Shown here: piece by piece, positions 754-60,590 of the stretch
Layout of the letters: every line of letters begins with the position of its first letter
Numbering within the stretch: position 1 is the stretch's first letter
DNA from: an uncultured Alphaproteobacteria bacterium
Lineage (GTDB): Bacteria > Pseudomonadota > Alphaproteobacteria > Rs-D84
DNA: 64,000 bases
Direction of reading: 5' to 3'
Assembly: GCA_944393245.1 (NCBI GenBank)
Contig: CALXZM010000004.1
Coordinates: 66,942 to 130,941 of the forward strand
The notes under the pieces: model-generated
The model's database searches: none
What the model was told of the DNA's origin: nothing
The model's input: only the letters and a program-made list of their open reading frames with translations
Translations under genes and position numbers: made by a program

Positions 754-765
754 GGGTCATATAAC

Positions 766-18578: not shown

Positions 18579-18604
18579 AAAAAAATCCGCCGTGGGGCGG
18601 ATTT
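18579..18604 (-). terminator. Terminator of rnpB
   Basis: Hairpin aaatccgcc/ggcggattt followed on the minus strand by a T tract, immediately 3' of the RNA. Confidence 0.75.
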
Positions 18605-18605
18605 C

Positions 18606-29757: not shown

Positions 29758-29828
29758 TGCGGGCGAAGGGAATCGAACCCTCGTCTTCAGCTTGGGAAGC
29801 TGACGTGCTGCCATTATACCACGCCCGC
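29755..29828 (-). tRNA. tRNA-Gly(CCC)
   Basis: GCGGGCGTGGTATAATGGCAGCACGTCAGCTTCCCAAGCTGAAGACGAGGGTTCGATTCCCTTCGCCCGCACCA; anticodon loop TTCCCAA. Confidence 0.96.
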
Positions 29829-44610: not shown

Positions 44611-44718
44611 TATGCTCTTGCTTTGTTTGTTGGATTTTAGTATAAATTCCATAGAACTGCAAGGATATATCCTGGGCGAATTTTGTATTATAAAAACAAT
44701 CAAATACGGGGGGATTTT

Positions 44719-46650
44719 ATGGGCGTTGACCAAATTTTCATAATTGTTGGCGGTGTGTTGGGCGGTTTGCTGTTGCTGGCACTGATTATATTGTTTTTTA
44801 TTTCCAGAAAATCCCAAAAGGTTATGCAATCGCTGTTAACATTGCTGACAAAACCAGAACGCGCACGCGTTCAGGATGCTGTGCGGGTGTTAAATTCTTT
44901 GTTGGCCGATGAAATGATAAAAATGGAATCCAATTTTCAAAATATTCGCGATGAAATGGAATCGCAAATATCGGCCGCCACAGAATTAAAAAATAATTTA
45001 GAACAACAAAATGACAAATTGGTTGCAACAACCGATGACGCAATTAAAAAAATTGCTGTGATGTCACAACGATTGGATAACACTGTCACCAGTTTGCAAG
45101 AAATTGTTAAATCCGCCAAATGGCAGGATGTCGAAATTTCCACAGACAGATTTAGTGCCACTGTTAACGATTTGTTGGCTAAAATAGATGTAACCACCCA
45201 GGACACAACCGAACGTGTCGCGCAAATTCAATCCAGCATGGATAAATGGATAGAGGCCAGCGATACATTATCAAATCAATTAAAGGCGGATTTTGAATCC
45301 AATACTGAACAAATGCGTAACCTGAATACTGAATATACCAGTATGCAACAAAATATGAATGATTTGTCCCAAACAACCGCCACTGGATTTGAAAATGTAA
45401 AAACTGCGGCAACCGGGTATGAAGAAACAATGGCGCAAAATAACAAGGCACTGGATGACCATTTGGCAAAAATGGACAGTTTTAATAAACGTGCACAAAA
45501 ACAGTTGTCAACCCAGGTAACGGCATTAACAAATACTGCGAATGTTGTCGCCGGCCAGGTACGTTTGTCTGAAACATCGGTCGAATCCCAGGTTCGTAAA
45601 TTAACCGGCGCGGTGGAATCTTTGATGAATTCTGCCACATCGACCGAGGCCGCCGTACGTAATATTTCCAAGGAATTGACTGAACTGTGCAATCATTTTA
45701 ACAAGGATATAACAGGATTCACCAATGATATTGTTGGCGAATTAAAAACCGTTTCTGGGGTTGCGAATTCCACATTGGAAAACACAAAAACTGCGGCTGG
45801 CGCATTTTCAGAATCCGTTCGCGCAATGGCGACCGGTGTACGCGAAACATTAATAGAAATGAATACAGCACATACACAATTGTCTGGTCAATCGGAAAAT
45901 CTGATTAAAATGTCGGCCGAAACAACGGCACAGTTGCAACCGCTGTCCGAATTGATAGAAAAATATTATTCGGCCCTGCCCGATTTGGCACGCGATTCAA
46001 TGACGACTGGTGACAACCTGCAAAAGATTGTGGAAAATCTGAACGAAAAAATTGCTTTGATGAAACAAACTGTTACAGAATCAACAACAACTATTGCGGA
46101 TTCTGCCGTTAAATTAGAAGATTTGGCCGGCCAATCACGTCAACAAATGATTGATTTGATGTCTGATTATACCAAGGCCGTAAATACAATGCAGACACTG
46201 AACAAGCAGATGATGGTTGCACGCGCCACCGCCCCAATGGATGCAATTGGCGCAACGCCGACGGGCACACCCGCATACGGACGCGTCAGCCCCCAGGACT
46301 TTTTACAGCAAAGTGAAAAAATGTTCGAAAAACTGCATGAACAAACCATGGATTTAACCCGTGCGGCGGGTGTTGAAATTCCAGATGTTATATGGAAAAA
46401 GTATCACGCCGGTGACAAAACAGTATTTTCGAAATGGTTTGCAAAAATTATGGCCGCAGCCGACAAAAAACAAGTTCGTGAAATGTTGAAAAATAACGCT
46501 GCATTCCGTTCCCAGGCAACGCAGTTCGTTCGCGGATTTGATAAAATACTGACCGCTGCGCGTAATGCGGATGGCACCGATAAATTGGCCGGCACATTGG
46601 CGAAAACCGACCTGGGCCAGATTTATATCGCCCTGAAAGGACACATATAA
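44719..46650 (+). CDS. Membrane-anchored coiled-coil protein, TipN/GPR-like polar scaffold candidate
   Basis: N-terminal TM, long coiled coil, C-terminal IWKKY..GDK.VF...FR..A.QF...F..IL...TD.G.IY..L domain. Confidence 0.75.
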   Translation: MGVDQIFIIVGGVLGGLLLLALIILFFISRKSQKVMQSLLTLLTKPERARVQDAVRVLNSLLADEMIKMESNFQNIRDEMESQISAATELKNNLEQQNDKLVATTDDAIKKIAVMSQRLDNTVTSLQEIVKSAKWQDVEISTDRFSATVNDLLAKIDVTTQDTTERVAQIQSSMDKWIEASDTLSNQLKADFESNTEQMRNLNTEYTSMQQNMNDLSQTTATGFENVKTAATGYEETMAQNNKALDDHLAKMDSFNKRAQKQLSTQVTALTNTANVVAGQVRLSETSVESQVRKLTGAVESLMNSATSTEAAVRNISKELTELCNHFNKDITGFTNDIVGELKTVSGVANSTLENTKTAAGAFSESVRAMATGVRETLIEMNTAHTQLSGQSENLIKMSAETTAQLQPLSELIEKYYSALPDLARDSMTTGDNLQKIVENLNEKIALMKQTVTESTTTIADSAVKLEDLAGQSRQQMIDLMSDYTKAVNTMQTLNKQMMVARATAPMDAIGATPTGTPAYGRVSPQDFLQQSEKMFEKLHEQTMDLTRAAGVEIPDVIWKKYHAGDKTVFSKWFAKIMAAADKKQVREMLKNNAAFRSQATQFVRGFDKILTAARNADGTDKLAGTLAKTDLGQIYIALKGHI

Positions 46651-46694: not shown

Positions 46695-47468
46695 TCATAT
46701 GCCCTGTTTATTATTGATATTTGTGTCAACATTGTTCGCGTCGTCAAACACATAATTTATTAATACATTTCCAACCGCCCCGCCAACAACACCGGCACCA
46801 CCAACAATGCCACCGGTTTGAACTTTCTGCGCGGTTTCCGATTGCTGGGCCGACCACGCGACCGCATCCGCACTGGTTGTGTCGGACAATGCACGTGAAA
46901 CCGATGCATACGCACCATCTGTTATACCAATTGCAGTATCATCATACAAACCAGACGTCGCCACATCGGAAATTATTTCTGATTCTATCCCAGGTGCCAT
47001 ACCCAGGACCTCTTTTCGTGCCTGCAAATCCGTCGCCAGGGTGATATATTCGTTGTACAGCGGTAATAATACGTTTGCACCGGGTAATTGTACATTTGTT
47101 TGGCCACCGGCAACAGTCATGCCAGCACCATAATTACATTTAAATGTTGCCAGATACGCCGCCATATCACGTTCAGCGTCCGCATCCGCGCGTTGTTCCG
47201 CAATACCAGACGCCAACATCATTCCACCAATACCACCCGCACCAATTGCCGCCGCACCCAACATACGATTTGCCAATGACTGTTCCCGCGCAGCAGCAGA
47301 ATTATATTTTTGTTCCAGGCCAGATATATCTGAATACAGCATCAATAATTCCATACCATTTGTATCATTATACATATCATTATATGGGTTGTCTGTCACT
47401 GGCATAAAGCCCCGTGCCGATTTTGGCAGTACGACAATTAATGTGAAAATAATAAACAACTTTTTCAT
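46695..47468 (-). CDS. Exported protein with two glycine-zipper hydrophobic segments
   Basis: Signal peptide; LGAAAIGAGGIGGMMLASG and GGIVGGAGVVGGAVGNVL. Confidence 0.75.
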   Translation of the reverse strand: MKKLFIIFTLIVVLPKSARGFMPVTDNPYNDMYNDTNGMELLMLYSDISGLEQKYNSAAAREQSLANRMLGAAAIGAGGIGGMMLASGIAEQRADADAERDMAAYLATFKCNYGAGMTVAGGQTNVQLPGANVLLPLYNEYITLATDLQARKEVLGMAPGIESEIISDVATSGLYDDTAIGITDGAYASVSRALSDTTSADAVAWSAQQSETAQKVQTGGIVGGAGVVGGAVGNVLINYVFDDANNVDTNINNKQGI

Positions 47469-48313
47469 TTATTGGTTACAGATTGGGAAAAATTTCTGAT
47501 ACGCCCACGCGCACGCGACGTCGGGAGTTTATTGGATTTCCATTCACGCGATTCATCCATTTGTATTGCCAATGGATAAAATGGCGAATTGGGGTCTGGT
47601 TGTCCGTTATCTGAGACTGGTATGTATTTGCCAGCACGAATGTCCGCCATTTCTTGGTTGCGCCACGCATACCATTCGTCATAATTATATTCTTCAACCA
47701 TTGTGCGTAATACAATATTATCAAATTGTTGTGCCATACCGGTGGTTTCATAATTATCAGAAGTGTTAGTTAAAGATATATCAATCTCATAATGGGTGTT
47801 TGATTCCTTGTCATCCATATCGATACGCAATGTTTGAATCATACCGCCCGTGTCTTTTTCAATATTAAAGTCTTCAAATCCATCCGGGTAATCACAGGCA
47901 CGGCGTTCCACTGTGTTATAACATAAATTTGCGTTATCCAGTTCACCCCTGTCCAGCCACAGTTTTTCCCTGGTCATTCCATTTATCAAATCTTGGGTGT
48001 CTGTTTTTATTGCGCGCCCCGTACTGTTGGATGCGTCTTGTAACATTTGTGTGTATTTTTTATCATAATATTCAAATGTTTTTTGGGCCAAAAATCCACG
48101 TATCTGGCGAACCTGCTGTGTCAATGGCATTGATTCCAACGATGCAACAAAATCGGCATCCACCGCCAACAATCTGTTTTTTATTGTGTCCAGTTCTGTT
48201 TCTAATATTGGGTCCGTTGAAAATATTAAATTTGCTGTGTTACCGACATCATTATCTGCGTATACAGGCAACGATGTAAAAAGAAACAGACAATAACAAA
48301 AAAATTTTCTCAT
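47465..48313 (-). CDS. Exported hypothetical protein
   Basis: MRKFFCYCLFLFTSLPVYA signal peptide; stop overlaps the next gene. Confidence 0.75.
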   Translation of the reverse strand: MRKFFCYCLFLFTSLPVYADNDVGNTANLIFSTDPILETELDTIKNRLLAVDADFVASLESMPLTQQVRQIRGFLAQKTFEYYDKKYTQMLQDASNSTGRAIKTDTQDLINGMTREKLWLDRGELDNANLCYNTVERRACDYPDGFEDFNIEKDTGGMIQTLRIDMDDKESNTHYEIDISLTNTSDNYETTGMAQQFDNIVLRTMVEEYNYDEWYAWRNQEMADIRAGKYIPVSDNGQPDPNSPFYPLAIQMDESREWKSNKLPTSRARGRIRNFSQSVTNK

Positions 48314-48329
48314 CCCGCGCCCCCATAAC

Positions 48330-48504
48330 AAAAAACCACCGAAAAAATTCAGGTGGTTGGAGGTTCGTTACAATTTTAGTCCAAATTGTGCTGTTTATTC
48401 AATCTATTCACAGCCCCCCAACCCGTGGTTGAGGGATTTACGTCTGATATCAGACGGGACTAAATACGGGTAACGACACCCCAATATGACAACACGTCAT
48501 ATCA
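48330..48504 (-). promoter_or_regulatory. Structured 5' leader RNA with terminator/antiterminator (copy A)
   Basis: Homologous to 58519-58697 with compensatory changes; terminator aaccacc/ggtggtt + U tract about 15 nt before the downstream ATG. Confidence 0.75.
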
Positions 48505-48548
48505 GTATATAATTTTATCAAATAATGATTACAGAATCAATTCTTTTG

Positions 48549-49235
48549 TCATCGTGTGCGCGCGCGGATAAAATTATCCAGTACCGGGCGCAGTTGCGCA
48601 AACACTTCATTAATTCCCATACGCGTGCCATCGTTGCGCATTTCGTCAACCACAGTCCATGTTTTTGGATTGGCGGCGGCTATCTGTTTATATACGTTTG
48701 ACACATCGTACAGTAATTTAAAATCACTTTCGTGAATGTCGGGACGACCATTTTGATACTGCTTTAACCCGGTGTGACGCATATTGTATGATATACGCGG
48801 GTCCAGATATAAATATATATTATGGTCTGGGCGAATTATGCCCATTTGATTAAATTCTAAATCTTCCATAAATTGGATTTTTTGCGCCCACTGGTCGCGC
48901 GGGTATTTTGCAACCGAAAAAGAATTGCTGTAAGTATACCTGTCCAATATAACCCATTTGCCGTCACGCAACCATTCAGCGATTTTGGGTTGATGCTGTA
49001 ACCTGTCCAATGCGTATGGCAACATAGTATATTCAGCGGGCAAATCACGCGTCGCGCCGAATTTGCCGTTTAAATAATCACGCACCAGCCGACCAAAAAA
49101 TGCATTATATTGTGGAAAATCCAGTGTTTCGGCCGCAATTCCGCGCGATTGCAAATATTTCATAATATTCATAACCTGGGTATGTTTACCGGCTTTATCG
49201 GTGCCTTCGACTGCAATCATATATCCATTGTTCAT
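48549..49235 (-). CDS. tmk: Thymidylate kinase
   Basis: EGTDKAGKHTQ P-loop, FPQY, ILDRYTYS, PD..IYL and HE.D motifs. Confidence 0.9.
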   Translation of the reverse strand: MNNGYMIAVEGTDKAGKHTQVMNIMKYLQSRGIAAETLDFPQYNAFFGRLVRDYLNGKFGATRDLPAEYTMLPYALDRLQHQPKIAEWLRDGKWVILDRYTYSNSFSVAKYPRDQWAQKIQFMEDLEFNQMGIIRPDHNIYLYLDPRISYNMRHTGLKQYQNGRPDIHESDFKLLYDVSNVYKQIAAANPKTWTVVDEMRNDGTRMGINEVFAQLRPVLDNFIRARTR

Positions 49236-49297
49236 AATAATCCCCTGTTTGTGTTTATAAAAAATGAAATCCCGCCACGGCGGGATTTTGATTTATT

Positions 49298-51379
49298 TTA
49301 ATCTTCCAGAAAGCTGCGCAGTTTGCGCGCACGTGTTGGATGTTTTAATTTATTCAGTGCCTTTTGTTCAATCTGACGAATACGTTCGCGTGTAACACCG
49401 ATGTATTCACCAACCTCTTCCAATGTGCTGGTTTTATTTGTACTCATCCCGAAACGCTGACGCAGAACGGTTTCTTCCTTGGGATCCAGTTCGGACAAAA
49501 TCTGGGTAACAATTTTACGCAGATTTTTCTGGGCCGCGGAAACGAACGGATTTTTAGCAGTTTCGTCCGCGATGATTTCAATACGACTGCTGTCATCTTC
49601 GGTGCCGACGGGGGCCTCTAATGAAATTGGTTTCAGATTTACCTTTAACGCCTTGTGAATTTTATCAACCGGCAGATAGATAATTTTTGATAATTCTTCG
49701 GGTGTGGGTTGACGGCCGTATTTATGCATAAATTGACGTGTGGCACGCTGAATTTTATGTATATTGTCAATCATATGCACTGGGATGCGGATTGTGCGGG
49801 CCTGGTCAGCGATACTGCGTGAAATACCCTGTTGAATCCAGTTTGTTGCATATGTTGAAAATTTATTACCCAAACGATAATCGAATTTATCCACCGCCTT
49901 CATCAGGCCAATATTACCGTCCTGGACCAAATCAGAAAAGTCCAATCCCAATCCGCGCGGGCTGTTCTTTTTGGCAAACTTTATTACCAGGCGCAGGTTG
50001 GCCTCTATCATTTCGCGCTTTGCACGGGCGGCTTCGGCCTGGCCACGACGAACCAATTCTACGACCTTTTTATATTCGGCGGTTGGTTGCCCTGTTTCGA
50101 CGGCGATTGCGGTTATGTCTTCTTGAATTTTTAAAATATCGTTTTCATGCTTTTTTGCAAAATTCGCCCAAGTCGGATTTTTGCTGCGCATTAACTTTTT
50201 AACCCAATTGCGGTTTATTTCATTCCCGGTGTATTCAGCCAAGAAATCTTCGCGTTTGATTTTATTCGCCATGGCCAAACGCAATAATTTACCTTCTAGT
50301 CCCATTAATAATTGGTCGCGTTTGGTTAATTGTTCCAAAATTTCTGCGATACGATCATCGTTCAGACGGATTTTGCTGACATATTCAAATAATTCCAGGC
50401 GCATTTTGGTGTACTTTTTTTCCAATGCTTCGTCTGGTTTGGATGATGCTTCCAAATTTTCCAAACGTTTTGCCTGTAATTTTTGCATATTGTTAAATAT
50501 GCGCTTTATCTTGCTGAATAAATCCATGACCATCGGCATCAGTGATTCTTCCATTACAGGAATTGGAACGCCAGATGTGCCACGTGGCGAATCTTCTTTT
50601 TTTATATCGCCATCTTCGTCATCGTCTTCTTCATCTTCGTCATCATCTGACATGGTTGATTCTTCTAAATCATCCAAATCTTCGTCGTCCAATTCATCAA
50701 CGTGTTCAACGCCCTTGGACTTTAATGTTTCAGATAATGCCGTCAATGATTTTTGTTCGGCGTCGCTGGAATACATAACTTCCAGATTTACAATATAACG
50801 CAGACGAATATCTTCGTTTAACAACTGTTGATACCAATCCAACATGGCCTGAATAGTCATTGGACTTTCGCACAGACCATATACCATTAAACGTGATGCA
50901 GCCTCTATACGTTGCGCAATGGCCACTTCGCCAGCGGCGGTTAATAATTGAACTGTACCAATTTGCTTTAAGTAAGATTGAACGGAATCCTGAACACCTA
51001 AAACCAGACTGCCCGTTTGGCTGCGTTCCAATTGTTTGGCATAATGTTCATAATCGTCATCGTTAACATCAACCTGTTCAGCATCAGAATGCAATAAATC
51101 ACGTGGTTTGTCCGCCGGGTCGTCGGAATCATCGTCATAATATTTTTCCATGCCCTGGGCATACGTGTCTGTTTCCAAAACTTCCAGTCCCAAATCCTGT
51201 TGAAAGAAATCCAGAACTTCTTCCTTTTCATCGGGTGGAACTTCGTCAGCGTCGGTTGCATCATCAAAATCTATTTTTGATAAATATCCGATTTCCACCG
51301 CGTTGGTGGCCAGTTTTTGTAAATTTTCTGGTAATGAATCAATCAATAACTTGGTTGCTTCGTCCAATTTCTTAGCCAT
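49298..51379 (-). CDS. rpoD: RNA polymerase primary sigma factor
   Basis: YLKQIG.VQLLT..GE, NLRLV, DLVQDGNIGLMKAVDKF, FSTYATNWI, QARTIRIPVHM and TRERIRQIE motifs. Confidence 0.97.
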   Translation of the reverse strand: MAKKLDEATKLLIDSLPENLQKLATNAVEIGYLSKIDFDDATDADEVPPDEKEEVLDFFQQDLGLEVLETDTYAQGMEKYYDDDSDDPADKPRDLLHSDAEQVDVNDDDYEHYAKQLERSQTGSLVLGVQDSVQSYLKQIGTVQLLTAAGEVAIAQRIEAASRLMVYGLCESPMTIQAMLDWYQQLLNEDIRLRYIVNLEVMYSSDAEQKSLTALSETLKSKGVEHVDELDDEDLDDLEESTMSDDDEDEEDDDEDGDIKKEDSPRGTSGVPIPVMEESLMPMVMDLFSKIKRIFNNMQKLQAKRLENLEASSKPDEALEKKYTKMRLELFEYVSKIRLNDDRIAEILEQLTKRDQLLMGLEGKLLRLAMANKIKREDFLAEYTGNEINRNWVKKLMRSKNPTWANFAKKHENDILKIQEDITAIAVETGQPTAEYKKVVELVRRGQAEAARAKREMIEANLRLVIKFAKKNSPRGLGLDFSDLVQDGNIGLMKAVDKFDYRLGNKFSTYATNWIQQGISRSIADQARTIRIPVHMIDNIHKIQRATRQFMHKYGRQPTPEELSKIIYLPVDKIHKALKVNLKPISLEAPVGTEDDSSRIEIIADETAKNPFVSAAQKNLRKIVTQILSELDPKEETVLRQRFGMSTNKTSTLEEVGEYIGVTRERIRQIEQKALNKLKHPTRARKLRSFLED

Positions 51380-51414
51380 AAACAAACCTTCCCGTGTATT
51401 TATTTTTTATTGCG

Positions 51415-51948
51415 TTATTTATTGTTTTGTGTTTTACGTGCCTTGGTAACGGCGTCATGCAATGCAGATTCCGATACCAACCCCAAAACAATCGGGCTTT
51501 GAATTTGAATTGCTGAATAAGATTTGTGTGTTTTGTTACGCACAGACGCAACCGTCGGATTCGTACTGCGCATCAGGCGCGCAATTTGACCGTCCGATAA
51601 TTCAGGATAATTTTTTAAAATCCATAAAATGCCACCCAAACGGTTTTGACGATGCAATTTTGGTGTGTATCCGACACCTTTTTTATTTTGCGCCTTTTGC
51701 GCCATAACGATTTCAGAACGCAATGTCAAACGTGCGTTTGGATCGGATTCACAACGTTCAATATCTTCACGGGTTAATTGACCATTTAAAATCGGATTTA
51801 AACCCTGGATTTTTGATGTTTCCGCATCAGCGATACTTTTAACCTCTAATTCATGCAGGCCGCAGAATTCAGCGATTTGTTCAAACGTCAATGACGTGTT
51901 TTCAATCAACCACAGCGCGGTGGATTTTGGCATATATGGGTAATTCAT
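51415..51948 (-). CDS. DUF1013-domain protein
   Basis: MPKSTALWLIENTSLTFEQIAEFCGLHELEV..IAD; YTP...RQNR; ELSDGQIARL. Confidence 0.9.
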   Translation of the reverse strand: MNYPYMPKSTALWLIENTSLTFEQIAEFCGLHELEVKSIADAETSKIQGLNPILNGQLTREDIERCESDPNARLTLRSEIVMAQKAQNKKGVGYTPKLHRQNRLGGILWILKNYPELSDGQIARLMRSTNPTVASVRNKTHKSYSAIQIQSPIVLGLVSESALHDAVTKARKTQNNK

Positions 51949-52051
51949 AGAACGTTCCTCTTGCTTGACGGGGTGTAATATATACCAAAATCCCCGTTAT
52001 TTCAAGCCTTTTTTGTATAAAATTTTATACAAATTGACGTCTGGACGTTTT

Positions 52052-53470
52052 TTATATTTTTTTGACCAATTTCACCCCGTCGCGCGTGTCGATAACTGTC
52101 CAGCCGGCGGCATCAATTTGCGCGCGTAATTCGTCGGCACGCGCCCAATCTTTGGCCGCCTTGGCCGCGGTGCGCGCATCCGCCAAGGCAACTATTTCGA
52201 CCGGTGCGGCTTCTGATTCTGCATCATTTAACTTTTTCGCACGGTCAATGAATTGCAATCCCAACAGACGGTCAATAAATTCAAACAAAGCTGCTTTTGT
52301 TGCGGCATCAGTGTCGGTGTCTTTTAACAATTCGTGTACAATCACCAATGTTTCAGCAGTTTTCATATTGTCAGATATTGTATTTAATATTTTATCATGC
52401 CATGCGTTAAATGTATCTTGGTTGATTTGAACAGAATTCGCATTTTTTAACAATTCTGCCACTTTGCGTACAATAGATTTATAACCTGTGCTGGCGGCAT
52501 CCAATGCGTCAAAAGAAAAATCCTGCGGTTGACGATAATGCCCCATCAACAGCATATACCGAAATGCCATTGGATCGTATCCACGGTCTATTAAATCTTG
52601 AACAGTTAAGAAATCACCAGACGATTTAGACATTTTGCCGTCTTTGGATAACAACCATTCGTAATGAACCCAATAATTGACCCATGGTTTGCCAACGATT
52701 GGTTCGCTTTGTGCGATTTCATCGGTATGATGAACCTTGATATGTTCTTGACCACCAACATGGATGTCAAAATGCGGCCCCAGGTATTTCATACTCATCG
52801 CACTGCATTCAATGTGCCACCCAGGGAACCCAATGCCCCAAGGACTGTCCCATTCCATGTCGCGTTTTTTATCTGTTGGTGAAAATTTCCACAACGCGAA
52901 ATCAGTCGGATTTTTTTTGCCACTGTCATCAATTCGTGCGCCACCGCGTAATTCAGATAAATTTTGACCACCCAATGCACCGTAATCTGGGAATTTGCTG
53001 GTATCATAGTATATGCCATTACCAGGAATTTCGTATGTATAACCTAATTTTTCCAGTTGTTTTATTAGGTCTATTTGTTCGGGGATGTTATCTGTCGCAC
53101 GTGGCATAACCGTTGGACGGATGATATTTAATGAATCTATGTCACGCAAAAAAGAATCTATATATTTTTGCGCGATATCCCATACAGACATCTTTTCGCG
53201 GGCGGCCCCTTTTTCCATTTTGTCTTCCCCAGTATCTTCATCACTGGTTAAATGGCCAACGTCGGTTATATTTATAACATGGCGGACATCGTATCCATTT
53301 TCAATAAACATACGTTTCAAAATATCACTGACTACAAAAGCGCGCATATTACCAATATGCTGATCCCAATAAACCGTTGGACCGCATGAATAAAACCCCA
53401 TTTTGCCGGGAACCAATGGTTTGAATTCTTCTGTTTTGCGGGTCATGGTATTAAATAATCTGATTATCAT
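52052..53470 (-). CDS. cysS: Cysteine--tRNA ligase
   Basis: YSCGPTVY..HIGN, NITDVGH, DFALWK, SPWG.GFPGWHIECSAM and KMSKS motifs. Confidence 0.98.
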   Translation of the reverse strand: MIIRLFNTMTRKTEEFKPLVPGKMGFYSCGPTVYWDQHIGNMRAFVVSDILKRMFIENGYDVRHVINITDVGHLTSDEDTGEDKMEKGAAREKMSVWDIAQKYIDSFLRDIDSLNIIRPTVMPRATDNIPEQIDLIKQLEKLGYTYEIPGNGIYYDTSKFPDYGALGGQNLSELRGGARIDDSGKKNPTDFALWKFSPTDKKRDMEWDSPWGIGFPGWHIECSAMSMKYLGPHFDIHVGGQEHIKVHHTDEIAQSEPIVGKPWVNYWVHYEWLLSKDGKMSKSSGDFLTVQDLIDRGYDPMAFRYMLLMGHYRQPQDFSFDALDAASTGYKSIVRKVAELLKNANSVQINQDTFNAWHDKILNTISDNMKTAETLVIVHELLKDTDTDAATKAALFEFIDRLLGLQFIDRAKKLNDAESEAAPVEIVALADARTAAKAAKDWARADELRAQIDAAGWTVIDTRDGVKLVKKI

Positions 53471-53521
53471 ATGCGTGTCCTTTGATGATTGATATAAAAA
53501 TGATAGTTAAATGGAAAAAAT

Positions 53522-53596
53522 ATTGCAAACGAAAACGTTTGCCAAAACGACAATTCAGCGCCAACAACAGTAAAAATCAATAAATCTGATTGTCAT
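53522..53596 (-). promoter_or_regulatory. Candidate Cys-codon attenuator (uORF MTIRFIDFYCCWR + hairpin) before cysS
   Basis: ORF 53596-53555; hairpin gcaaacg/cgtttgc followed by a U-rich run. Confidence 0.4.
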
Positions 53597-53614
53597 TGTA
53601 ATAAAACACAATCC

Positions 53615-53703
53615 TGGCGGAGCGTATAGGACTCGAACCTATGGACCGCTAAAACACGGTCACAGATTAGCAATCTGCTGCATTACCACTCTGCCAACGC
53701 TCC
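53615..53703 (-). tRNA. tRNA-Ser(GCT)
   Basis: GGAGCGT acceptor stem, anticodon loop TTGCTAA, long variable arm, GGTTCGAGTCC, encoded CCA. Confidence 0.96.
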
Positions 53704-53724
53704 GCGTGGTTGCAGGGGGTATTA

Positions 53725-53753
53725 TACAGAAACACAAATTTAAATGCAAGTCA
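53725..53753 (-). promoter_or_regulatory. sigma70 promoter of tRNA-Ser(GCT)
   Basis: TTGCAT-N17-TATAAT on the minus strand. Confidence 0.75.
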
Positions 53754-54143
53754 GAAATAACCGCCAACGAAACAAAAATTCACCCCCGACATTGAACACC
53801 GTCGCCCCAGGAACATGTTCTGCTGTGCTTTCTGATAATGTGATGACGCATTCACATCAAATCCATAGGAATATGGATTCACAGGGCCTGGGGAACCCCA
53901 TAACAAACCGATGCAGTGATGCATTGTTATCCGATATAATGGTGCACCTGCATCGTTATATCCCCGAAAAATGTCGGGGTGTGTTGGGAATAGAACACGG
54001 GAAACCGAAATACCAACAGGTCATTAGTTTGTTATGATTTTTCTGGCACCCCGACCACCATTTTAGTGTGGTCGATTTTTATTCCGTGTCACCGTATGAT
54101 AGAGAAAAAGTTCTCTATCCTATGGCATATGGTGGAATGGAAT

Positions 54144-54171
54144 AAAAAAAACGCCCAAACGGGCGTTTTTT
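54144..54171. terminator. Terminator after accD-accA fusion
   Basis: aaaaaaaacgccc-aaac-gggcgtttttt. Confidence 0.8.
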
Positions 54172-55912
54172 ATTTATCGTCGGCGTCATGGTCGGGCGCA
54201 CAAAAATCAACATCACGCGTCATGGCCAGAAATTTTTCTGCACGACGGGCCGGCAATTCATTAACCGGGATTTTTTGCAAATCTGTGATTTGTTCCGACA
54301 CAGCCGTGGCCAACAATTCCATTGTTGTTTGCCAATCGGTATGGGCACCACCCGCAGGTTCGTCCACTATCTGGTCAATAACATTCAATTCCGCCATATC
54401 GCGCGCGGTCAATTTCATTGCCGCAGCGGCCGTGGCCTTGAACTTGTTATCTTTCCACAGAATGCTGGCACAGGATTCAGGGGCAATCACTGAATAAATC
54501 GTGTTTTCCAACATTAAAACGCGATCCCCGGTACCAATTGCAATTGCGCCGCCACTGCCGCCCTCGCCCACGTTGACGGCAACGTATGGCGTTTTGATTG
54601 ACAATCCCGTTGCAATTGATGATGCAACGGCCTGGGACTGGCCACGTTCTTCGGCGGCACTGCCCGCGAACGCGCCCGCCGTATCAAACAATGTTATAAC
54701 CGGCAAATTTAATTTTTCTGCCAAACGCATTAAACGTTGCGCCTTGCGATAACCTTCGGGATTGGGCATTCCAAAGCGATGAAATTGGCGGGTTTCTATA
54801 TCACGACCCTTTTCCTGGCCAATTATGACGGCCGGAATATCACGCCAATAACCAATACCACCACACATGGCTGGATCTTCACCAAACAAACGGTCGCCCG
54901 CCAAATATGTCCAATCTTCGACTATGCCATTTATATAGTCCAAGAAATGCGGACGGTTTTCATTACGGGCCAATAAAACCTTGTCATATGCATCTGTTTC
55001 GCCCATACCACGGACCTTTTTGTTGTCGTGTGTCGGGGTTGTAATATTAATTGCATGTGGTTTGTGGGGCTGTTTGGTCAAAACAGATAATATTTTTTCC
55101 AATTTGCCCTTTAATTCGTCACGCGGGACAACCATATCAACCATACCATGTTCATACAGGTATTCTGCCGTTTGGAAATTAGACGGTAATTTTTCACGAA
55201 TGTTTTGTTCAATAACACGACGGCCCGCAAAACCAATACGTGCGCCCTTTTCCGCAATATGAATGTCGCCCAACATCGCAAATGATGCCGTTACACCACC
55301 AAATGTCGGATCTGTCAATAATACGATGTATGGAATGCCATTTTCATGCAGTTTATTAACAGCAACGGTTGTGCGCGCCATTTGCATTAATGACAATATG
55401 TTTTCCTGCATACGTGCACCGCCACTGCATGTGACCATAATAAATGGTTGACGTTTGTCAATTGCGTGTTCCATGCTGGCGACGATGCCGTCCCCGGCCG
55501 CACGCCCCATGGATCCCAACATAAAATCACCATTCAAAACACATATGGTCGTCGGAATACCGCCAATCACACCGTCTGCCGTGGTGATGGCGTCGTTGTA
55601 CCCTGTTTCAGTACGTGCCTCTGCCAGGCGGTCTTTATACGATTTACGGTCAACAAAATTCAGCGGATCGTCCGTAACAACCGGTAATTTTAAACGTTCC
55701 CATTCATTATTATCAAACAACAAATCAAAACGTTGTTTGGGCGTCATGATAAATGCACGACCACAGCGTGGGCAAATATAATGATTTGTTTTGTAATCTT
55801 TGTAATATACCAAATGGCCGCACGATTCACACTTTATCCACATCAATCGACGAATGCGGTCATAGCGTTCGCGATTGCGATTTTTTATGCCTGCTCTTTT
55901 ACCAAATAACAT
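54170..55912 (-). CDS. Acetyl-CoA carboxylase carboxyltransferase, beta-alpha (AccD-AccA) fusion
   Basis: WIKCESC...CPRC Zn ribbon, GSMG, SGGARMQE, PTFGGVTASFA (AccD), then RP..LDYI, FGMPNPEGYRKAQR, GEGGSGGA, YSVIAPESCASILW (AccA) in one frame. Confidence 0.95.
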   Translation of the reverse strand: MLFGKRAGIKNRNRERYDRIRRLMWIKCESCGHLVYYKDYKTNHYICPRCGRAFIMTPKQRFDLLFDNNEWERLKLPVVTDDPLNFVDRKSYKDRLAEARTETGYNDAITTADGVIGGIPTTICVLNGDFMLGSMGRAAGDGIVASMEHAIDKRQPFIMVTCSGGARMQENILSLMQMARTTVAVNKLHENGIPYIVLLTDPTFGGVTASFAMLGDIHIAEKGARIGFAGRRVIEQNIREKLPSNFQTAEYLYEHGMVDMVVPRDELKGKLEKILSVLTKQPHKPHAINITTPTHDNKKVRGMGETDAYDKVLLARNENRPHFLDYINGIVEDWTYLAGDRLFGEDPAMCGGIGYWRDIPAVIIGQEKGRDIETRQFHRFGMPNPEGYRKAQRLMRLAEKLNLPVITLFDTAGAFAGSAAEERGQSQAVASSIATGLSIKTPYVAVNVGEGGSGGAIAIGTGDRVLMLENTIYSVIAPESCASILWKDNKFKATAAAAMKLTARDMAELNVIDQIVDEPAGGAHTDWQTTMELLATAVSEQITDLQKIPVNELPARRAEKFLAMTRDVDFCAPDHDADDK

Positions 55913-55913
55913 C

Positions 55914-56195
55914 TTATTGCTCGTTCATTTTTTTTGTTAATTCACGGCTGGGTTTGAACAAAATAGTCGTACTGGCGTCCAAATGCATTGGTTGACCAGT
56001 GCATGGGTTATATCCTATCTTGGTCGCGCGCGCGCGTGGTTGAAACGTGCCGAAACCACGAACCTCTATCCTGTTGCCATTCGCCACAGATTCCATCATT
56101 TGGTCCGCAACCGTATCCAATATGGCGGCCGCATCCGTGGCACGCATGTGTTTGAATTGAACCTGAATAGATCGTACAATGTCAGAACGTTTCAT
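55914..56195 (-). CDS. ihfB: Integration host factor beta / HU-family protein
   Basis: MKRSDI...GNRIEVRGFGTF..R.R....GYNP.TG...FKPS.EL. Confidence 0.85.
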   Translation of the reverse strand: MKRSDIVRSIQVQFKHMRATDAAAILDTVADQMMESVANGNRIEVRGFGTFQPRARATKIGYNPCTGQPMHLDASTTILFKPSRELTKKMNEQ

Positions 56196-56317
56196 CTTTT
56201 ATATCCTTTGTTTTAATCATTATTATTTATTTATGAAATCATTTTATCAAGAACAAAGTTTTTTATAACAAAAAAATTGGGCGACACAATAAGTGTCGCC
56301 CTTATATTAAATCTGGA

Positions 56318-57046
56318 CTAGAAACTATACCGCATACCAAATAAAAATTCATGCGAATATATGTCGGAATCTGATTCTATGTACGGGTTATTTGGGACCG
56401 CACCACCAAATTCCATGTCTGTGCCACCATAATCAGTAAATCTGTATCCTGCATCAATCGTTAAACGCGTGGTTGCAGCATATGACACACCGGCACCCAA
56501 CTGAAATGCAAAATTACTGGCATTATCATTGCGGGAAATATTCATGCGTCCACCATTCGGTAATTCTGTGTGCATGGTTACGTCACTGCGCGTATATGCG
56601 TATCCAATACCACCACCAACGTATGGGACCAAACGATAGCCTAAATCCCAATCAAAATACACATTTAACATTGCGGTATATGCAGATGTTTTTATATCAT
56701 AATCCATAATAACAGGTGTATATGCAATAAACATGTTGCCTGTGTCTGATGTGGATGTTTCCAGCATACCACCCAATTCCAATTCTGTGCGAACACGGCC
56801 ATATTTAATTGGCATTCCCAAACCATATGCAATCTTGCCCCCCAGCAAAAAATCTGACGTATCAAATTCAGATTCACCGTAATATCGTGTGGGGGTTGAT
56901 GTTATGTACAAAACATCTGTTTCAATATCATTGTTCATTATACCAATTCCCACACGCAATGCGGCATATTGATTCCAATTGGACGGCAACGCATTTGCAG
57001 CACCACATGTGCAAATTGTTGCTGAAATTATTAACAGTTTTTTCAT
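56318..57046 (-). CDS. Outer-membrane beta-barrel protein (Omp25/opacity-like)
   Basis: Signal peptide, N.Y.D...RLVPYVGGGIG, FAFQLGAGVSY, DAGYRF, terminal MRYSF. Confidence 0.88.
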   Translation of the reverse strand: MKKLLIISATICTCGAANALPSNWNQYAALRVGIGIMNNDIETDVLYITSTPTRYYGESEFDTSDFLLGGKIAYGLGMPIKYGRVRTELELGGMLETSTSDTGNMFIAYTPVIMDYDIKTSAYTAMLNVYFDWDLGYRLVPYVGGGIGYAYTRSDVTMHTELPNGGRMNISRNDNASNFAFQLGAGVSYAATTRLTIDAGYRFTDYGGTDMEFGGAVPNNPYIESDSDIYSHEFLFGMRYSF

Positions 57047-57179
57047 AATGTTCCCCCCCCATAATTATATTATATGGTTCATTATAATCTGTAACCACAT
57101 GCATAACCATAAGATTATACACCTGTATATTATCATGCCCCAGATACATATAATAAAAATCGCAACCAAAGGAGATTTT

Positions 57180-57956
57180 ATGCATAACTTTTTTGAACAT
57201 TGTGGATGTGGCGAATGCGATAATATGCATGATGATATGTCACATATGCCGTTGATTGGTGATATGGCACCTGAATTTATCGCAGAAACAACAAATGGCG
57301 AAATTCATTTCCCCAGTGACTATACAGGCAAATGGGTGGTGCTGTTTTCACATCCTGCGGATTTTACCCCGGTATGCACAACTGAATTTATGGCTTTTCA
57401 ATCAATAATGGATAAACTGCATGAATTAAATACTGAACTGGTTGGGTTGTCCGTTGGAACACTGACCGGGCATTTGGCATGGATAGACGCCATACGTAAT
57501 ATAAAATATCGTGGCTGGGAAAATGTTAATATTTCGTTTCCGATAATAGACGATATGAACATGCAAATAGCAAAAAAGTACGGCATGATTCACCCAAACG
57601 CATCTGATTCCAAGGCCGTGCGTGCAGTATTTGTTATTGATCCGACGGGTAAAATACGCGCAATTTTATATTATCCATTGACCACAGGACGCAATATGGA
57701 TGAAATTTTGCGATTGTTAATGGCATTGCAAACAACCGACAATTTTGGCGTTTCCACACCGGCTGATTGGCAACCGGGCGACGACGTGTTGGTTGGTGCG
57801 CCTGCCACAACCACAGAAATGCACAAACGTATTAATAACCCTGATACAGGATTAGATGTAAAAGCATGGTTTTTATCGTTCAAACCGTTATCAGCAGACA
57901 CAATTATGAACCGAATACAAACCAAACAATCAGCAAAGAAAAATACTAAAAAATAA
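57180..57956 (+). CDS. Peroxiredoxin (Prx6/1-Cys type) with His/Cys-rich N-terminal extension
   Basis: FSHPADFTPVCTTEF, VRAVFVID, YYPLTTGRN and TPADWQPG motifs; RBS aaggag before ATG 57180. Confidence 0.92.
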   Translation: MHNFFEHCGCGECDNMHDDMSHMPLIGDMAPEFIAETTNGEIHFPSDYTGKWVVLFSHPADFTPVCTTEFMAFQSIMDKLHELNTELVGLSVGTLTGHLAWIDAIRNIKYRGWENVNISFPIIDDMNMQIAKKYGMIHPNASDSKAVRAVFVIDPTGKIRAILYYPLTTGRNMDEILRLLMALQTTDNFGVSTPADWQPGDDVLVGAPATTTEMHKRINNPDTGLDVKAWFLSFKPLSADTIMNRIQTKQSAKKNTKK

Positions 57957-57982
57957 AAACAACGGGGCGTTTGCCCCGTTTC
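57955..57982. terminator. Terminator (ACGGGGC-N4-GCCCCGT family)
   Basis: aacggggc-gttt-gccccgttt. Confidence 0.75.
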
Positions 57983-58327
57983 TTAAAACACCAATGGAAA
58001 ATCCCGTATATCTAATGGAACCCCATCACGTTCAGGATCCCATTGGAATTCATCCATTTTTACGCGCTTGTCGCGGGTGAATTTTACGCCTTCGGCTTTT
58101 AGGGCTTTGTACTGTTGTTCAAAAAAGCCGGAACCACACAAACTGCCGTCTTTAAAAACAACGCGGTGCCATGGCAAATGCCAACTGTTTTTATTATTTG
58201 ACGCATATCCAACAAAACGTGCCATACGTGGTCGCCCAATCATGCGCGCAATTTGACCAAATGTCGCAACACGACCGGCTGGAATTCGCGCCACAATATC
58301 ATAAACCTGTTCATTGAAAGTTTTCAT
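57983..58327 (-). CDS. Alkyltransferase-like protein (MGMT family, PWHRV)
   Basis: V.RIPAGRVATFGQIA...ARFVG...LPWHRVV; Trp replaces the catalytic Cys. Confidence 0.88.
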   Translation of the reverse strand: MKTFNEQVYDIVARIPAGRVATFGQIARMIGRPRMARFVGYASNNKNSWHLPWHRVVFKDGSLCGSGFFEQQYKALKAEGVKFTRDKRVKMDEFQWDPERDGVPLDIRDFPLVF

Positions 58328-58344
58328 TGTAATTATAAATCTAG

Positions 58345-58434
58345 TGGCGGAGACGAAGGGATTTGAACCCTTGATACGGTTGCCCGTATACGCGATTTCG
58401 AGTCGCGCGCATTCAACCACTCTGCCACGTCTCC
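58345..58434 (-). tRNA. tRNA-Ser(CGA)
   Basis: GGAGACG acceptor stem, anticodon loop CTCGAAA, long variable arm, encoded CCA. Confidence 0.96.
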
Positions 58435-58518
58435 GATGCGTGCAATTATACAGATTTCGTTTTTATTTGCAAGTGCTTTTGACCTTGCATAAAGCAATAT
58501 ATATTTTTATAGTGATAA

Positions 58519-58697
58519 TGATATGACGAGTTGTCATATTGGGGCTTCACAACCCTTTAACCAGCGTCGGTGACGACGATAAAAATCTCCAATCTGTAAT
58601 GGTTGGAGTGCGGTTAATATATTGAATACCCGCGCAATTCTGGTTAATTGTTGTAAAACTCCAACCACCAAGTATTTATATTGGTGGTTTTGTTTTG
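58519..58697 (+). promoter_or_regulatory. Structured 5' leader RNA with terminator/antiterminator (copy B)
   Basis: Follows a TTGCAT-N17-TATAGT promoter-like sequence; homologous to copy A; terminator aaccaccaa/ttggtggtt + U-rich tail before the OMP gene. Confidence 0.75.
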
Positions 58698-58719
58698 TTA
58701 TTAACAAAGGGGAAATGTT

Positions 58720-59388
58720 ATGAAAAAAGCAATATTAACCGGTATATGTGCACTGGGACTGGTTGGGACGGCATGGGCAGAAACTGCACCGACATCGGAA
58801 TTACCAATAAAAGTATTTCTTGGTGCGAATGTGGCAATGACAATGCCGGTCTGGTCAGATGATGTGAATGATATAATGGATCAAATAAATACAGAATTGC
58901 CAGGATTAAATTTAGGATTGGGGGCCGAAGCCGGTATAAAATTTGGTGCAGCCGATAAAATATATAATTTTGGGGTAAGCGTTGCATATGATTATATGTT
59001 TGATTCTGCCGCAGATATTGGGTATCCATATGATCAGTTGGTTTCTGAAATAAGCACTGGTTTTTCAACAATCAGTATTTATTTTGATAATTATATAAGA
59101 TTTGCTGACAACGCCGGGAAACGCAGCGATTTGGTTTTAGGGGTTGGGTATACAAATGGCACAGAACGCATTCGAATGGCGGCAACACAATTGGGCTATG
59201 AATATGGATTGGATACAACATATGGTGATGATACGGGTTCCTTTATTGGGCTAAAAATCGGGTACTTGCAACAAATTACATCAAATGTAGATTTTTCTAC
59301 TATGTTGCGTATGTTTATTCCGACCGTCAGCGAAAGCGATATAGGTTCTATATTTAATATAAGTGCCGGAATTAGATATAATTTCTAA
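58720..59388 (+). CDS. Outer-membrane beta-barrel protein
   Basis: Signal peptide, alternating beta strands, terminal GIRYNF (BAM-type signal). Confidence 0.85.
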   Translation: MKKAILTGICALGLVGTAWAETAPTSELPIKVFLGANVAMTMPVWSDDVNDIMDQINTELPGLNLGLGAEAGIKFGAADKIYNFGVSVAYDYMFDSAADIGYPYDQLVSEISTGFSTISIYFDNYIRFADNAGKRSDLVLGVGYTNGTERIRMAATQLGYEYGLDTTYGDDTGSFIGLKIGYLQQITSNVDFSTMLRMFIPTVSESDIGSIFNISAGIRYNF

Positions 59389-59420
59389 TAAAAAAAACGC
59401 CCAGTTGGGCGTTTTTTTTA
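59388..59420. terminator. Bidirectional terminator
   Basis: aaaaaaaacgccc-agtt-gggcgtttttttt. Confidence 0.85.
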
Positions 59421-60590
59421 TTAAACATCAAAATTATAACCCTGGACCGATTTTACAATTGCCGCCACTAATTTATCCTGGTGCGCGGATGATTTTAATA
59501 ATTTTTCTTCGGCCGCATTAGATAAATGCCCCAATTCAATTAACGCACCCGGAACGGTCGAACGTAAAACCGCAAACGGTGCATGGCGAACATCCGGCCC
59601 AGGTTGTTGGGTTATTTTTGCACGCTTGAACGCGGATGCACACCCATTCGCATATTCCACCGACATTGCCGCCACAGCGTGCTGTTGCAATGATGACAGC
59701 GCAATACGAATATCTTTATCAAATTGTTCAAATCCACTGACGTCAATTTTATCGGCGGCATTTTCGGCATCGGCCAGTTTTGCAGCCTCTTCATCTGATG
59801 CCTTTTCAGATAATGTATAAATTGAAAAACCCTGCATAGAACGGCGGGGATTCGCATTTGCATGCAACGACAGGAACAAATCAGCATGTTTCTTTTCACC
59901 AATTGATGCACGATGGGCTAATTTTAAATATGTGTCATTGCTGCGCGTTAAATATGTTTGAAATCCAGCCGCGTCCAATTTATTTTTTAATTTTTTTGCA
60001 ACTGATAAAACAACGGTTTTTTCCTGGGTTCCGCCCTTGCCTATACAGCCGGGATCCTTGCCCCCGTGACCAGCATCAATAACAACAACGTATTTGCGCG
60101 ATGGTGCCGATTTTTTTGCCGGGGCCGCGGTTGCGGTTGTGGCCGTCGTTGTTGCCGTGCGGGCGCCACTGCCCGCGACAAAATCCAACACCAAACGATA
60201 TTCATTATCGCCGTTGGGATTTAACAACATAATATTATCACGTGGTATTTCATCAATCGGTTTTGCCAAATCAGCAACAATTTGCAATTTGTCCCCAGAT
60301 TGAATTTGCGTTATTGCCGTAATTAATGTCCCAGACGCCATTGCAGGTGACAATTGCGCGTTTGCCGCAGTGTTTGCCAATGTCACAACCAACTGATTTG
60401 ATGGATATGACAATGAATAAGATGGCCGCGACGATGTTTCAATAACCAGACGTGTTTTGTTGCCCGGCTGAACCCCAGTGCGCACCGTGCGCAATGCATT
60501 ACGTGCCGCAAAGGCAACACGCGGCAACAGTGCAACTATTACCGCCGTTAATCCGGATAATTTCAAAACATTGCGTCGTGTAATAAACAT
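59421..60590 (-). CDS. amiC: N-acetylmuramoyl-L-alanine amidase (Tat signal, AMIN + Amidase_3)
   Basis: TRRNVLK Tat motif, TRLVIE...RLVLD AMIN, IDAGHGGKDPG, SLHAN and LIELGHLSN motifs. Confidence 0.93.
   Translation of the reverse strand: MFITRRNVLKLSGLTAVIVALLPRVAFAARNALRTVRTGVQPGNKTRLVIETSSRPSYSLSYPSNQLVVTLANTAANAQLSPAMASGTLITAITQIQSGDKLQIVADLAKPIDEIPRDNIMLLNPNGDNEYRLVLDFVAGSGARTATTTATTATAAPAKKSAPSRKYVVVIDAGHGGKDPGCIGKGGTQEKTVVLSVAKKLKNKLDAAGFQTYLTRSNDTYLKLAHRASIGEKKHADLFLSLHANANPRRSMQGFSIYTLSEKASDEEAAKLADAENAADKIDVSGFEQFDKDIRIALSSLQQHAVAAMSVEYANGCASAFKRAKITQQPGPDVRHAPFAVLRSTVPGALIELGHLSNAAEEKLLKSSAHQDKLVAAIVKSVQGYNFDV

Follow-up and report, generated by a model that had tools for sequence, protein, structure and literature searches.

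A family of structured leader RNAs with a predicted terminator/antiterminator switch in uncultured gut and rumen bacteria

Two Copies of a Leader RNA at One Locus

The stretch of DNA analyzed here (hereafter, the window) comprises 64,000 nucleotides (nt) of contig CALXZM010000004.1 from an uncultured alphaproteobacterium, and carries two diverged copies, A and B, of a leader RNA, each preceded by a promoter-like site and followed by genes for proteins with signal peptides. We found that both copies belong to a family of RNAs that are very probably cis-acting structured leaders with a terminator/antiterminator switch. The main features of the locus are as follows.

48328 to 48502, minus strand: copy A of the leader RNA, whole element, from the 5'-terminal hairpin P0 through the terminator U tract (covariance model 130.2 bits, E 4e-45)
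48512 to 48540, minus strand: promoter-like site of copy A, TTGATT, 17-nt spacer, TAAAAT (consensus scan), ending 9 nt before P0
46695 to 48313, minus strand: genes downstream of copy A, for a 282-amino-acid (aa) protein (48313-47465) and a 257-aa Gly-rich protein (47468-46695), both with signal peptides and no Pfam match
58479 to 58513, plus strand: promoter-like region of copy B, TTGACC-17-TATTTT in the scan (58479-58507), with an alternative TTGCAT-17-TATAGT ending at 58513
58521 to 58698, plus strand: copy B of the leader RNA, whole element (covariance model 140.7 bits)
58720 to 59388, plus strand: gene downstream of copy B, for a 222-aa protein with a signal peptide and the C-terminus ...IRYNF, read as an outer-membrane beta-barrel

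The two copies share about 60% overall identity, with identical blocks alternating with differing stretches. Their 25-nt 5' motif, GATATGAC-N5-GTCATATTGGGG, has exactly two occurrences in the window (none expected, from 100 shuffles), and their folding energies of -70.3 and -62.6 kcal/mol correspond to z-scores of -6.4 and -5.8 against shuffled sequences. When the covariance model was run over the whole window with its filters off, it matched copies A and B only, the next best score being 12.9 bits; the reverse strand scored about 12 bits. A search for the exact 25-nt motif in one genome per species returned, as its sole match, a near-identical contig of a metagenome-assembled genome, and the sequence of the 5' hairpin is not conserved beyond close relatives.

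A preliminary description of this DNA had listed a series of pairings, and each of them was found at its place in both copies when the sequence was re-read. The elements of copy A, in their 5' to 3' order, are as follows.

48484 to 48502, minus strand: P0, the 5'-terminal hairpin ATATGAC-GTGTT-GTCATAT, with the same ATATGAC/GTCATAT in copy B
48468 to 48482, minus strand: hairpin H1, GGGG...CCC, whose loop (48477-48471) is the 5' strand of helix K1
48457 to 48463, minus strand: 5' strand of helix K2, TTAGTCC, with its partner GGACTAA (48382-48376) in the H5 loop
48441 to 48456, minus strand: P2 hairpin, CGTCTGA-TA-TCAGACG
48415 to 48435, minus strand: P3 hairpin, CCCTCAACC-ACG-GGTTGGGGG, with a folding free energy (dG) of -13.3 kcal/mol
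48423-48415, minus strand: switching strand, which is the 3' strand of P3
48390 to 48414, minus strand: P4 hairpin, GCTGT/ACAGC, with the conserved A/U-rich loop GAATAGATTGAATAA
48371 to 48388, minus strand: H5 hairpin, CAATT-[T GGACTAA]-AATTG, whose loop is the 3' strand of K2
48364 to 48370, minus strand: 3' strand of K1, TAACGAA, with its partner at 48477-48471
48355 to 48363, minus strand: antiterminator strand CCTCCAACC, complement of the 3' strand of P3, its last 4 nt opening the terminator stem
48328 to 48358, minus strand: predicted intrinsic terminator, AACCACC-loop-GGTGGTT and then TTTTGT (dG -11.0 kcal/mol)

Copy B keeps the same order of elements.

58521 to 58539, plus strand: P0, the 5' hairpin
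58541 to 58555, plus strand: hairpin H1, GGGG...CCC, with the 5' strand of K1, TTCACAA (58546-58552), in its loop
58559 to 58564, plus strand: 5' strand of K2, AACCAG, with its partner CTGGTT at 58640-58645
58565 to 58578, plus strand: P2 hairpin, CGTCG-GTGA-CGACG
58586 to 58609, plus strand: P3 hairpin, CTCCAATC-TGTAAT-GGTTGGAG (dG -11.1 kcal/mol), whose 3' strand plus T58609 is the switching strand
58610 to 58633, plus strand: P4 hairpin, stem GCGG/CCGC, loop TTAATATATTGAATAC
58635 to 58657, plus strand: H5 hairpin, CAATT-CTGGTT-AATTG, whose loop is the 3' strand of K2, followed directly by the 3' strand of K1, TTGTAAA (58651-58657)
58658 to 58666, plus strand: antiterminator strand ACTCCAACC, a perfect complement of GGTTGGAGT (58601-58609), with a duplex of -13.9 kcal/mol against -11.1 kcal/mol for P3
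58663 to 58698, plus strand: predicted intrinsic terminator, AACCACC-loop-GGTGGTT and then TTGTTTTGT (dG -11.3 kcal/mol)

The P4 stems of the two copies (GCTGT/ACAGC and GCGG/CCGC) both enclose AATA-N-ATTGAATA.

Relatives and Size of the Family

Relatives were found through the downstream proteins, independently of the RNA sequence, and represent 8 diverged lineages. The RNA is kept upstream of homologs of the 282-aa protein at 82, 58, 53, 42, 39, and 33% identity, and the upstream neighbor varies among these relatives (tmk in some, tatA in others), so that the RNA belongs to the downstream gene. B-type RNA is kept upstream of homologs of the 222-aa outer-membrane protein at 84-97% identity; at a 44% homolog, the 75-nt spacer holds no such RNA. 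A third kind of copy is found in locus L011, upstream of a gene for a 76-aa XRE-type helix-turn-helix (HTH) protein.

The 8 lineages were aligned by hand, element by element, as the basis of covariance model R1, which gave about 105 and 33 strong matches (47-141 bits) in the collected loci, or about 140 copies. Some of these had been missed by a metagenome scan for a pattern made of P3 and the downstream repeat, which returned at least 120 stretches from gut and rumen, with about 20 expected by chance on a rough estimate; among the matches listed, 3 come from viral contigs. A descriptor search of all loci added a G-type copy in L011 and otherwise few chance matches inside genes. The preliminary description had envisaged a covariance model of the copies with homologs in relatives, and many more homologs were indeed found, with covariation present among them. 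Overall, the family is large and widespread in uncultured gut and rumen bacteria, and not just a matter of two copies.

Family members are about 165-195 nt long. A short subtype of about 145-150 nt, without P2, lies upstream of genes for XRE-type HTH proteins of 72-85 aa in L011 (12497-12645, minus strand), L040, L051, L080, and L092. Several loci share housekeeping genes with the lineage of the window at 54-85% amino-acid identity, which places at least some members of the family in that same broad lineage; the neighboring genes include the TrcR family, which is alphaproteobacterial.

Some loci hold several copies. Four head-to-tail copies, each with a promoter-like site and a terminator, occupy positions 158-1000 (plus strand) of L065, where an open reading frame (ORF) of 84-96 aa and unknown function follows only the last of them; a fifth copy in the same locus (5135-5286, minus strand) lies upstream of a small HTH-like ORF, and L092 has two adjacent copies. 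Candidates for independent transcription units without a following ORF are 4 tandem copies and perhaps 2 more.

Some copies lie in or beside mobile elements, namely the integrase/DUF927 element in L003 and the viral contigs. In L003 (7110-12255), an integrase/DUF927-primase element is inserted after an APH-like gene in one relative, and another copy of the RNA, cut by the contig end, lies at the far edge of the element, upstream of a 266-aa protein. In the window itself, contigs of two runs join position 58475 to 59420/59421 (within 58475-59421), omitting 944-945 nt. This joint implies that some strains are without the entire unit of promoter, leader, and outer-membrane protein gene, which behaves as a presence/absence cassette.

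Fold and Covariation

The architecture common to the family consists of P0; the hairpins H1 and H5, whose loops pair with remote strands (K1 and K2); the hairpins P2, P3, and P4 between the two strands of K2; and the terminator. The H1 loop has its partner about 100 nt downstream (K1), and the single strand after H1 pairs with the H5 loop (K2). An A-rich linker, J23 (65% A), precedes P3, and the P4 loop has a modal length of 15 nt with the pattern GAAUA...GAAUAA.

Covariation was assessed in an alignment of 110 copies made with the covariance model (A7), with 10 helices and 58 pairs. Because it was built by fitting to the nested helices, the alignment is biased in their favor; H1 and H5 are not pairs in the model. 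Standard pairs fill 91.8% of the cells of A7, compared with 68.5% when the 3' letters are shuffled and 36-44% when the partners are slid by 1-3 columns. Compensatory (both-side) changes occur at 52 of the 58 pairs, in 1434 cells against 410 in shuffles, and covarying pairs are distributed over the helices P0 (7/7), H1 (3/3), K1 (7/7), K2 (9/9), P2 (5/5), P3 (6/9), P4 (6/6), H5 (5/5), and the terminator (4/7). In P0, pairing is kept through free sequence change (UA 63, AU 19, CG 18 among others). The 3 pairs of H1 are 98.8% paired (GC 72, AU 18, GU 14), the 9 pairs of K2 are 96% paired, and the 5 pairs of H5 are 83-87% paired, with AU 57 / UA 17 and AU 72 / UA 12; pair 285-336 of the terminator is AU 57 / GC 36. 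RNAalifold, run independently, recovers the nested helices with 40 pairs, 37 of them compensatory. The loop of P0 keeps the consensus G-N-R-U-U in all copies while its stem varies freely (A7 columns 9-25), which suggests a tertiary or protein contact.

In the minimum-free-energy fold given by RNAfold, which is nested, K1 and K2 appear as outer helices; it is only the additional formation of the H1 and H5 hairpins that makes them pseudoknots. The double pseudoknot proposed in the preliminary description is supported by the covariation in A7, which extends to H1 and H5, the two hairpins absent from the pairs of the model. An independent positional parse showed that 110 of 111 copies have a 3' linker of 0 nt from K2 to H5, and that the 5' linker lengthens with K2, from 0-1 nt at 6 bp to 1-2 nt at 7 bp and 2 nt at 8 bp (rho 0.50, p = 2e-8). 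This geometry is expected of a loop helix stacked on H5, so K2 and H5 can coexist. Both crossing helices of each pseudoknot are supported by covariation, and they probably form simultaneously.

In the minimum-free-energy fold, the GGGG strand pairs with CCUC of the antiterminator strand in place of H1. This pairing is disfavored: G-to-A changes in H1 are compensated in the CCC strand, and in lineage F (UAGG/CCUA) no pairing with its own antiterminator strand is possible. We prefer the H1 hairpin, with GGGG:CCUC as a possible transient.

The Terminator/Antiterminator Switch

The antiterminator strand (AT) comprises the 9 nt right after K1, CCUCCAACC in most copies. It is complementary to P3b, the switching strand of P3, plus a base x, and its last 4 nt begin the terminator stem. 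In the window, the downstream CTCCAACC overlaps the AACCACC/GGTGGTT terminator with its U tract and can pair with the GGTTGGRG strand. This alternative pairing had been noticed in the two copies at the outset, and it covaries in the protein-anchored lineages, as GGCAGGAG/CTCCTGCC and GGTCGGGG/CCCCGACC.

The 9-bp helix P3b:AT is 97.2% / 98.8% paired, the first value being that of the 8 protein-anchored lineages, in which 4 of its 9 pairs show compensatory changes (GGUU/AACC, GGCA/UGCC, GGUC/GACC). The pattern used to search the large set fixed the sequences of P3 and AT, so that conservation there is circular. The ninth pair, between x and the first nucleotide of AT, was not fixed by the pattern, and it covaries (GC 89, UA 12, AU 5); base x pairs with its own partner in P3 in just 48% of the copies. 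For 111 of 114 copies, the predicted stability of the AT duplex exceeds that of the P3 hairpin (-15.2 vs. -12.3 kcal/mol), and the terminator stem has at least 6 pairs in 112 of the 118 parsed copies, with a mean dG of -10.4 kcal/mol. Segments 2 and 3 of the attenuator (P3b and AT) are set about 55-65 nt apart by the structured RNA that closes the pseudoknots.

A variant copy in L048 (1250-1340, plus strand) has a terminal hairpin CCGC/GCGG without a U tract, followed by GGAGG-ATG, and may, to judge from this arrangement, act on translation instead of termination. A leader peptide spanning P3a was also considered and rejected: by eye, the short ORFs that occur in some copies lack both a ribosome-binding site and conservation.

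Promoters and Downstream Genes

At a distance of 2-12 nt (mode 6-7) upstream of P0, 95 of 98 copies have a -10-like TANNNT box. A same-strand ORF of at least 60 aa begins within 250 nt in 83 of the 89 assessable copies, and the median distance from AT to the start codon is 51 nt, the start codon being about 20 nt past the U tract. The proposed association with 5' untranslated regions thus extends from the window to the family, with the box before P0 and the start codon shortly after the terminator. In the window, a tRNA gene (58348-58434, minus strand) is back-to-back with the promoter of copy B. In L034, L041, L047, and L050, an extra G+C-rich hairpin, CCCCTC...GAGGGG, lies just 3' of the terminator, often followed by CCGG...CCGG, and the start codon of this subset is unusually distant (>100 nt); the extra hairpin may be a second regulatory module.

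Among the downstream proteins, a signal-peptide-like N-terminus was found in 58 of 99 with a simple heuristic. Most of the 102 downstream proteins compared with Pfam match no family; Listeria-Bacteroides repeat domains are present in 19, OMP_b-brl in 2, and any single family of XRE-type HTH in at most 9, several of these families overlapping on the same proteins. A link to envelope genes, suggested at first by the two loci in the window, therefore holds more widely: by the signal-peptide tally and Pfam, the downstream genes mostly encode exported or surface proteins. A second major class of targets consists of genes for small XRE-type HTH proteins.

For copy B, a distant homolog (P0012) of the 222-aa protein carries PF13505 OMP_b-brl. 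The 282-aa protein downstream of copy A (47465-48313) was confidently modeled with AlphaFold2 (AF2) as an N-terminal helical part and then an antiparallel sheet, with a mean confidence score (pLDDT) of 78 and a predicted template-modeling score (pTM) of 0.75; a Foldseek search of this model against the PDB gave no match with E<=0.001. Convergent with the copy A operon is a gene at 44683-46650 (plus strand) for a 655-aa protein with weak coiled-coil-type Pfam matches, which is conserved at 54-63% in the metagenome loci L085 and L088 and is also present in the relatives L012 and L022.

Absence from Catalogued Families

A search of the whole window against Rfam 15 at the gathering score returned RNase P and 3 tRNAs only. 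The former is a bacterial RNase P RNA of class A (18602-18927, minus strand, 193 bits), and the tRNA genes lie at 58348-58434, 53618-53703, and 29758-29828, all on the minus strand, two of them with long variable arms. With permissive filters and E<=10, the 4227 Rfam families gave nothing relevant for either copy; the best sub-threshold scores, STnc230 at 25.0 bits (gathering 50) and rli60 at 18.6 bits (gathering 60), were unrelated, on the wrong strand or in the wrong region. At 12 further loci holding diverse copies, Rfam at the gathering score returned tRNAs only. The initial view of the RNA as unrecognised accordingly agrees with the Rfam searches, which assigned neither copy to a family, and no description of the leader was found in searches of the full-text literature or in a paper on 224 motifs (PMC5737381). 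We class the family as a new kind of riboswitch-like transcription attenuator that belongs to no catalogued family.

Proposed Mechanism and Alternative Explanations

We propose the following mechanism. Each copy would be transcribed from its own promoter, the transcript starting with P0. The double pseudoknot (H1/K1 and H5/K2) around P2, P3, and P4 would make up a sensor-like domain, which may bind an effector; a small molecule or an ion is the likeliest kind. When P3a:P3b and T5:T3 pair, the intrinsic terminator would form and the gene would be off; when P3b pairs with AT over 9 bp, covering the first 4 nt of the terminator stem, read-through would result. The effector would lock P3, so that the terminator forms (an OFF switch), and without it the stronger AT:P3b helix would displace P3a before the 3' arm of the terminator is made. 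The statement as a whole, of a family of own-promoter 5' leaders with a sensor domain and a four-segment attenuator set to OFF by an effector, is the one we favor, with modest confidence. A small molecule or ion is a plausible effector, with a probability a little below even. The opposite polarity is possible, as is a protein or RNA effector. The riboswitch- or attenuator-like role put forward in the preliminary description is supported by the structure, the alternative pairing, and the leader position, and the small-molecule ligand keeps its conjectural standing.

Several points weigh against this proposal. Effector binding, the pocket, and termination in vivo are all conjectural, and few unpaired nucleotides are strongly conserved apart from GGGG/CC, the A-rich J23, and the P4 loop. 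Independent support for AT comes from the 8 lineages and the ninth pair, the large set being circular for P3/AT. P3 is stable alone (about -12 kcal/mol), so ligand dependence is not obvious, and ON-type or factor-dependent logic is equally possible. The tandem copies in L065 and L092 fit small RNA (sRNA) genes and tandem riboswitches equally. The runs labeled as RNA-seq consist of assembled contigs, some of which cross the promoter, and are uninformative on transcript ends; that one such contig starts at 58516 and another ends at 58695 is weak, anecdotal evidence.

The regulon, made up of surface or secreted proteins and small XRE-type regulators, offers no hint of a metabolite and would suit a signal of global reach, for instance a second messenger, better than a pathway end-product. 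We consider, tentatively, that the family may be a new riboswitch class responding to such a signal (a cyclic di- or oligonucleotide, an alarmone, or a host cue). In an uncultured gut lineage of alphaproteobacteria, it would be present in dozens of copies per genome and would switch surface and secreted proteins, small XRE regulators, and genes of mobile elements, with tandems sharpening the response. A messenger of the cyclic-dinucleotide type would be a speculative choice, by analogy. Related loci amounting to about 1.07 Mb, with 363,170 residues in long ORFs, were scanned for the GGDEF motif; the one convincing ORF, in L048, is too little to argue either way.

The choice between P3 and the AT helix could instead be made by a factor, either an RNA-binding protein (an antiterminator, or a NusG-type protein as at LoaP leaders) or an RNA acting in trans. 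Such a factor-dependent attenuator would suit a regulon of accessory, surface, and mobile-element genes, like those of regulators of the RfaH/UpxY/LoaP type; it would also suit a P3 that is stable unaided, and the conserved G-N-R-U-U of the P0 loop and GAAUA...GAAUAA of the P4 loop could be protein contacts. However, no conserved candidate protein gene was found beside the copies, RNA polymerase need not be modified when the leader has a covarying antiterminator helix of its own, and in size and in the complexity of its pseudoknots the RNA is typical of aptamers for metabolites. We regard this explanation as rather unlikely, if a serious one.

The copies might also be, wholly or in part, genes for stable trans-acting sRNAs, which would target other mRNAs by pairing of CCUCC in P3a/AT with their G-rich ribosome-binding sites; the location beside genes would then be secondary. 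The tandem copies (four in L065 and two in L092), with promoters and terminators of their own and no intervening ORF, are what would be expected of such genes, a 5' hairpin and a terminator suit a stable RNA, and the downstream ribosome-binding sites are G-rich (GGGG/GGAGG). Against this stand the same-strand ORFs that follow nearly all assessable copies (83/89, as above), with a start codon so close behind the terminator that there is no room for a separate promoter, and the CCUCC segments, which are paired in both conformers. The tandems, for their part, have precedents among complete riboswitches, which are known to occur in tandem, including a triple c-di-GMP (cyclic di-GMP) one. An sRNA function is thus improbable.

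It is very improbable that the family is a diverged member of a known one missed by Rfam (a cyclic-dinucleotide, ykkC-type, or other pseudoknotted riboswitch). Its gene context does resemble that of c-di-GMP riboswitches, with adhesin-like or surface proteins, regulators, and many copies per genome, but none of the 4227 families matched at E<=10 and none at the gathering score on the 12 further loci, and we know of no family with this helix order and a double pseudoknot. A DNA-level repeat without RNA function (a mobile promoter cassette, an operator palindrome, or chance similarity) would account for the palindrome ATATGAC-N5-GTCATAT at the transcription start and for the unit missing in some strains between 58475 and 59420/59421, but it is effectively refuted by compensatory changes at 52 of 58 pairs on one strand, G-U included, which are an RNA-level signature, by a 5' palindrome whose sequence changes freely while its pairing is kept, and by the score of the reverse strand (about 12 bits).

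The leaders form a large, covariation-supported class of structured RNA that Rfam 15 does not contain, from bacteria without cultured representatives. The class joins two loop-strand pseudoknots, an unusual arrangement, to a clear expression platform, and it behaves like an orphan riboswitch whose regulon comprises adhesin-like repeat proteins, outer-membrane proteins, secreted proteins of unknown kind, and small regulators. The identity of its effector would reveal the signal by which gut symbionts remodel their surface, and the alignment and covariance model make the question directly testable; if the effector is a protein or RNA, a new antitermination system would be at hand instead.

Comparison With Known Systems

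The family has partial counterparts among several kinds of regulatory RNA. With multicopy C/U-rich sRNAs (Listeria LhrC1-5 and the alphaproteobacterial alpha-r14/NfeR1 type) it shares tandem units, an own promoter and terminator, and CCUCC-like motifs. By contrast, its C-rich motifs lie inside helices and not in loops, nearly all of its copies directly precede an ORF, and it has no match to an alpha-r family in Rfam. Leaders for processive antitermination (the LoaP leader, EAR, and put) are similar in being structured RNAs in the leaders of accessory or surface operons with intrinsic terminators; however, these modify RNA polymerase or recruit a NusG paralog, without a covarying antiterminator helix that overlaps a particular terminator, and none of them is matched by the new leader in Rfam.

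The switch itself follows the logic of four-segment attenuators (trp-type, and the platforms of PyrR, TRAP, and the T-box), in which pairing of segments 1:2 and 3:4 terminates transcription and pairing of 2:3 allows read-through. In contrast to the trp-type and T-box systems, no conserved leader peptide was seen by eye in several copies, and neither a specifier nor a T-box sequence was found. The regulons of c-di-GMP-I/II and cGAMP riboswitches (in C. difficile, in Geobacter, and in the triple tandem of B. thuringiensis) resemble that of the new family by gene context only, with many copies per genome before adhesins, surface proteins, and regulators, and with tandems; the folds are unrelated.

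Pseudoknotted terminating riboswitches (c-di-GMP-II, SAM-II/V, preQ1-II, and fluoride) also invite comparison. Compared with these, the new leader is larger (about 140 nt before the terminator), has no Rfam match, and combines two pseudoknots from separate hairpin loops with a three-hairpin core, its ligand being a presumed one. It is like them in being a 5' leader whose sensor fold is held by pairing between a loop and a distant strand, in sharing the 5' arm of its terminator with an alternative helix, and in using a strand of an aptamer helix as the switching strand.

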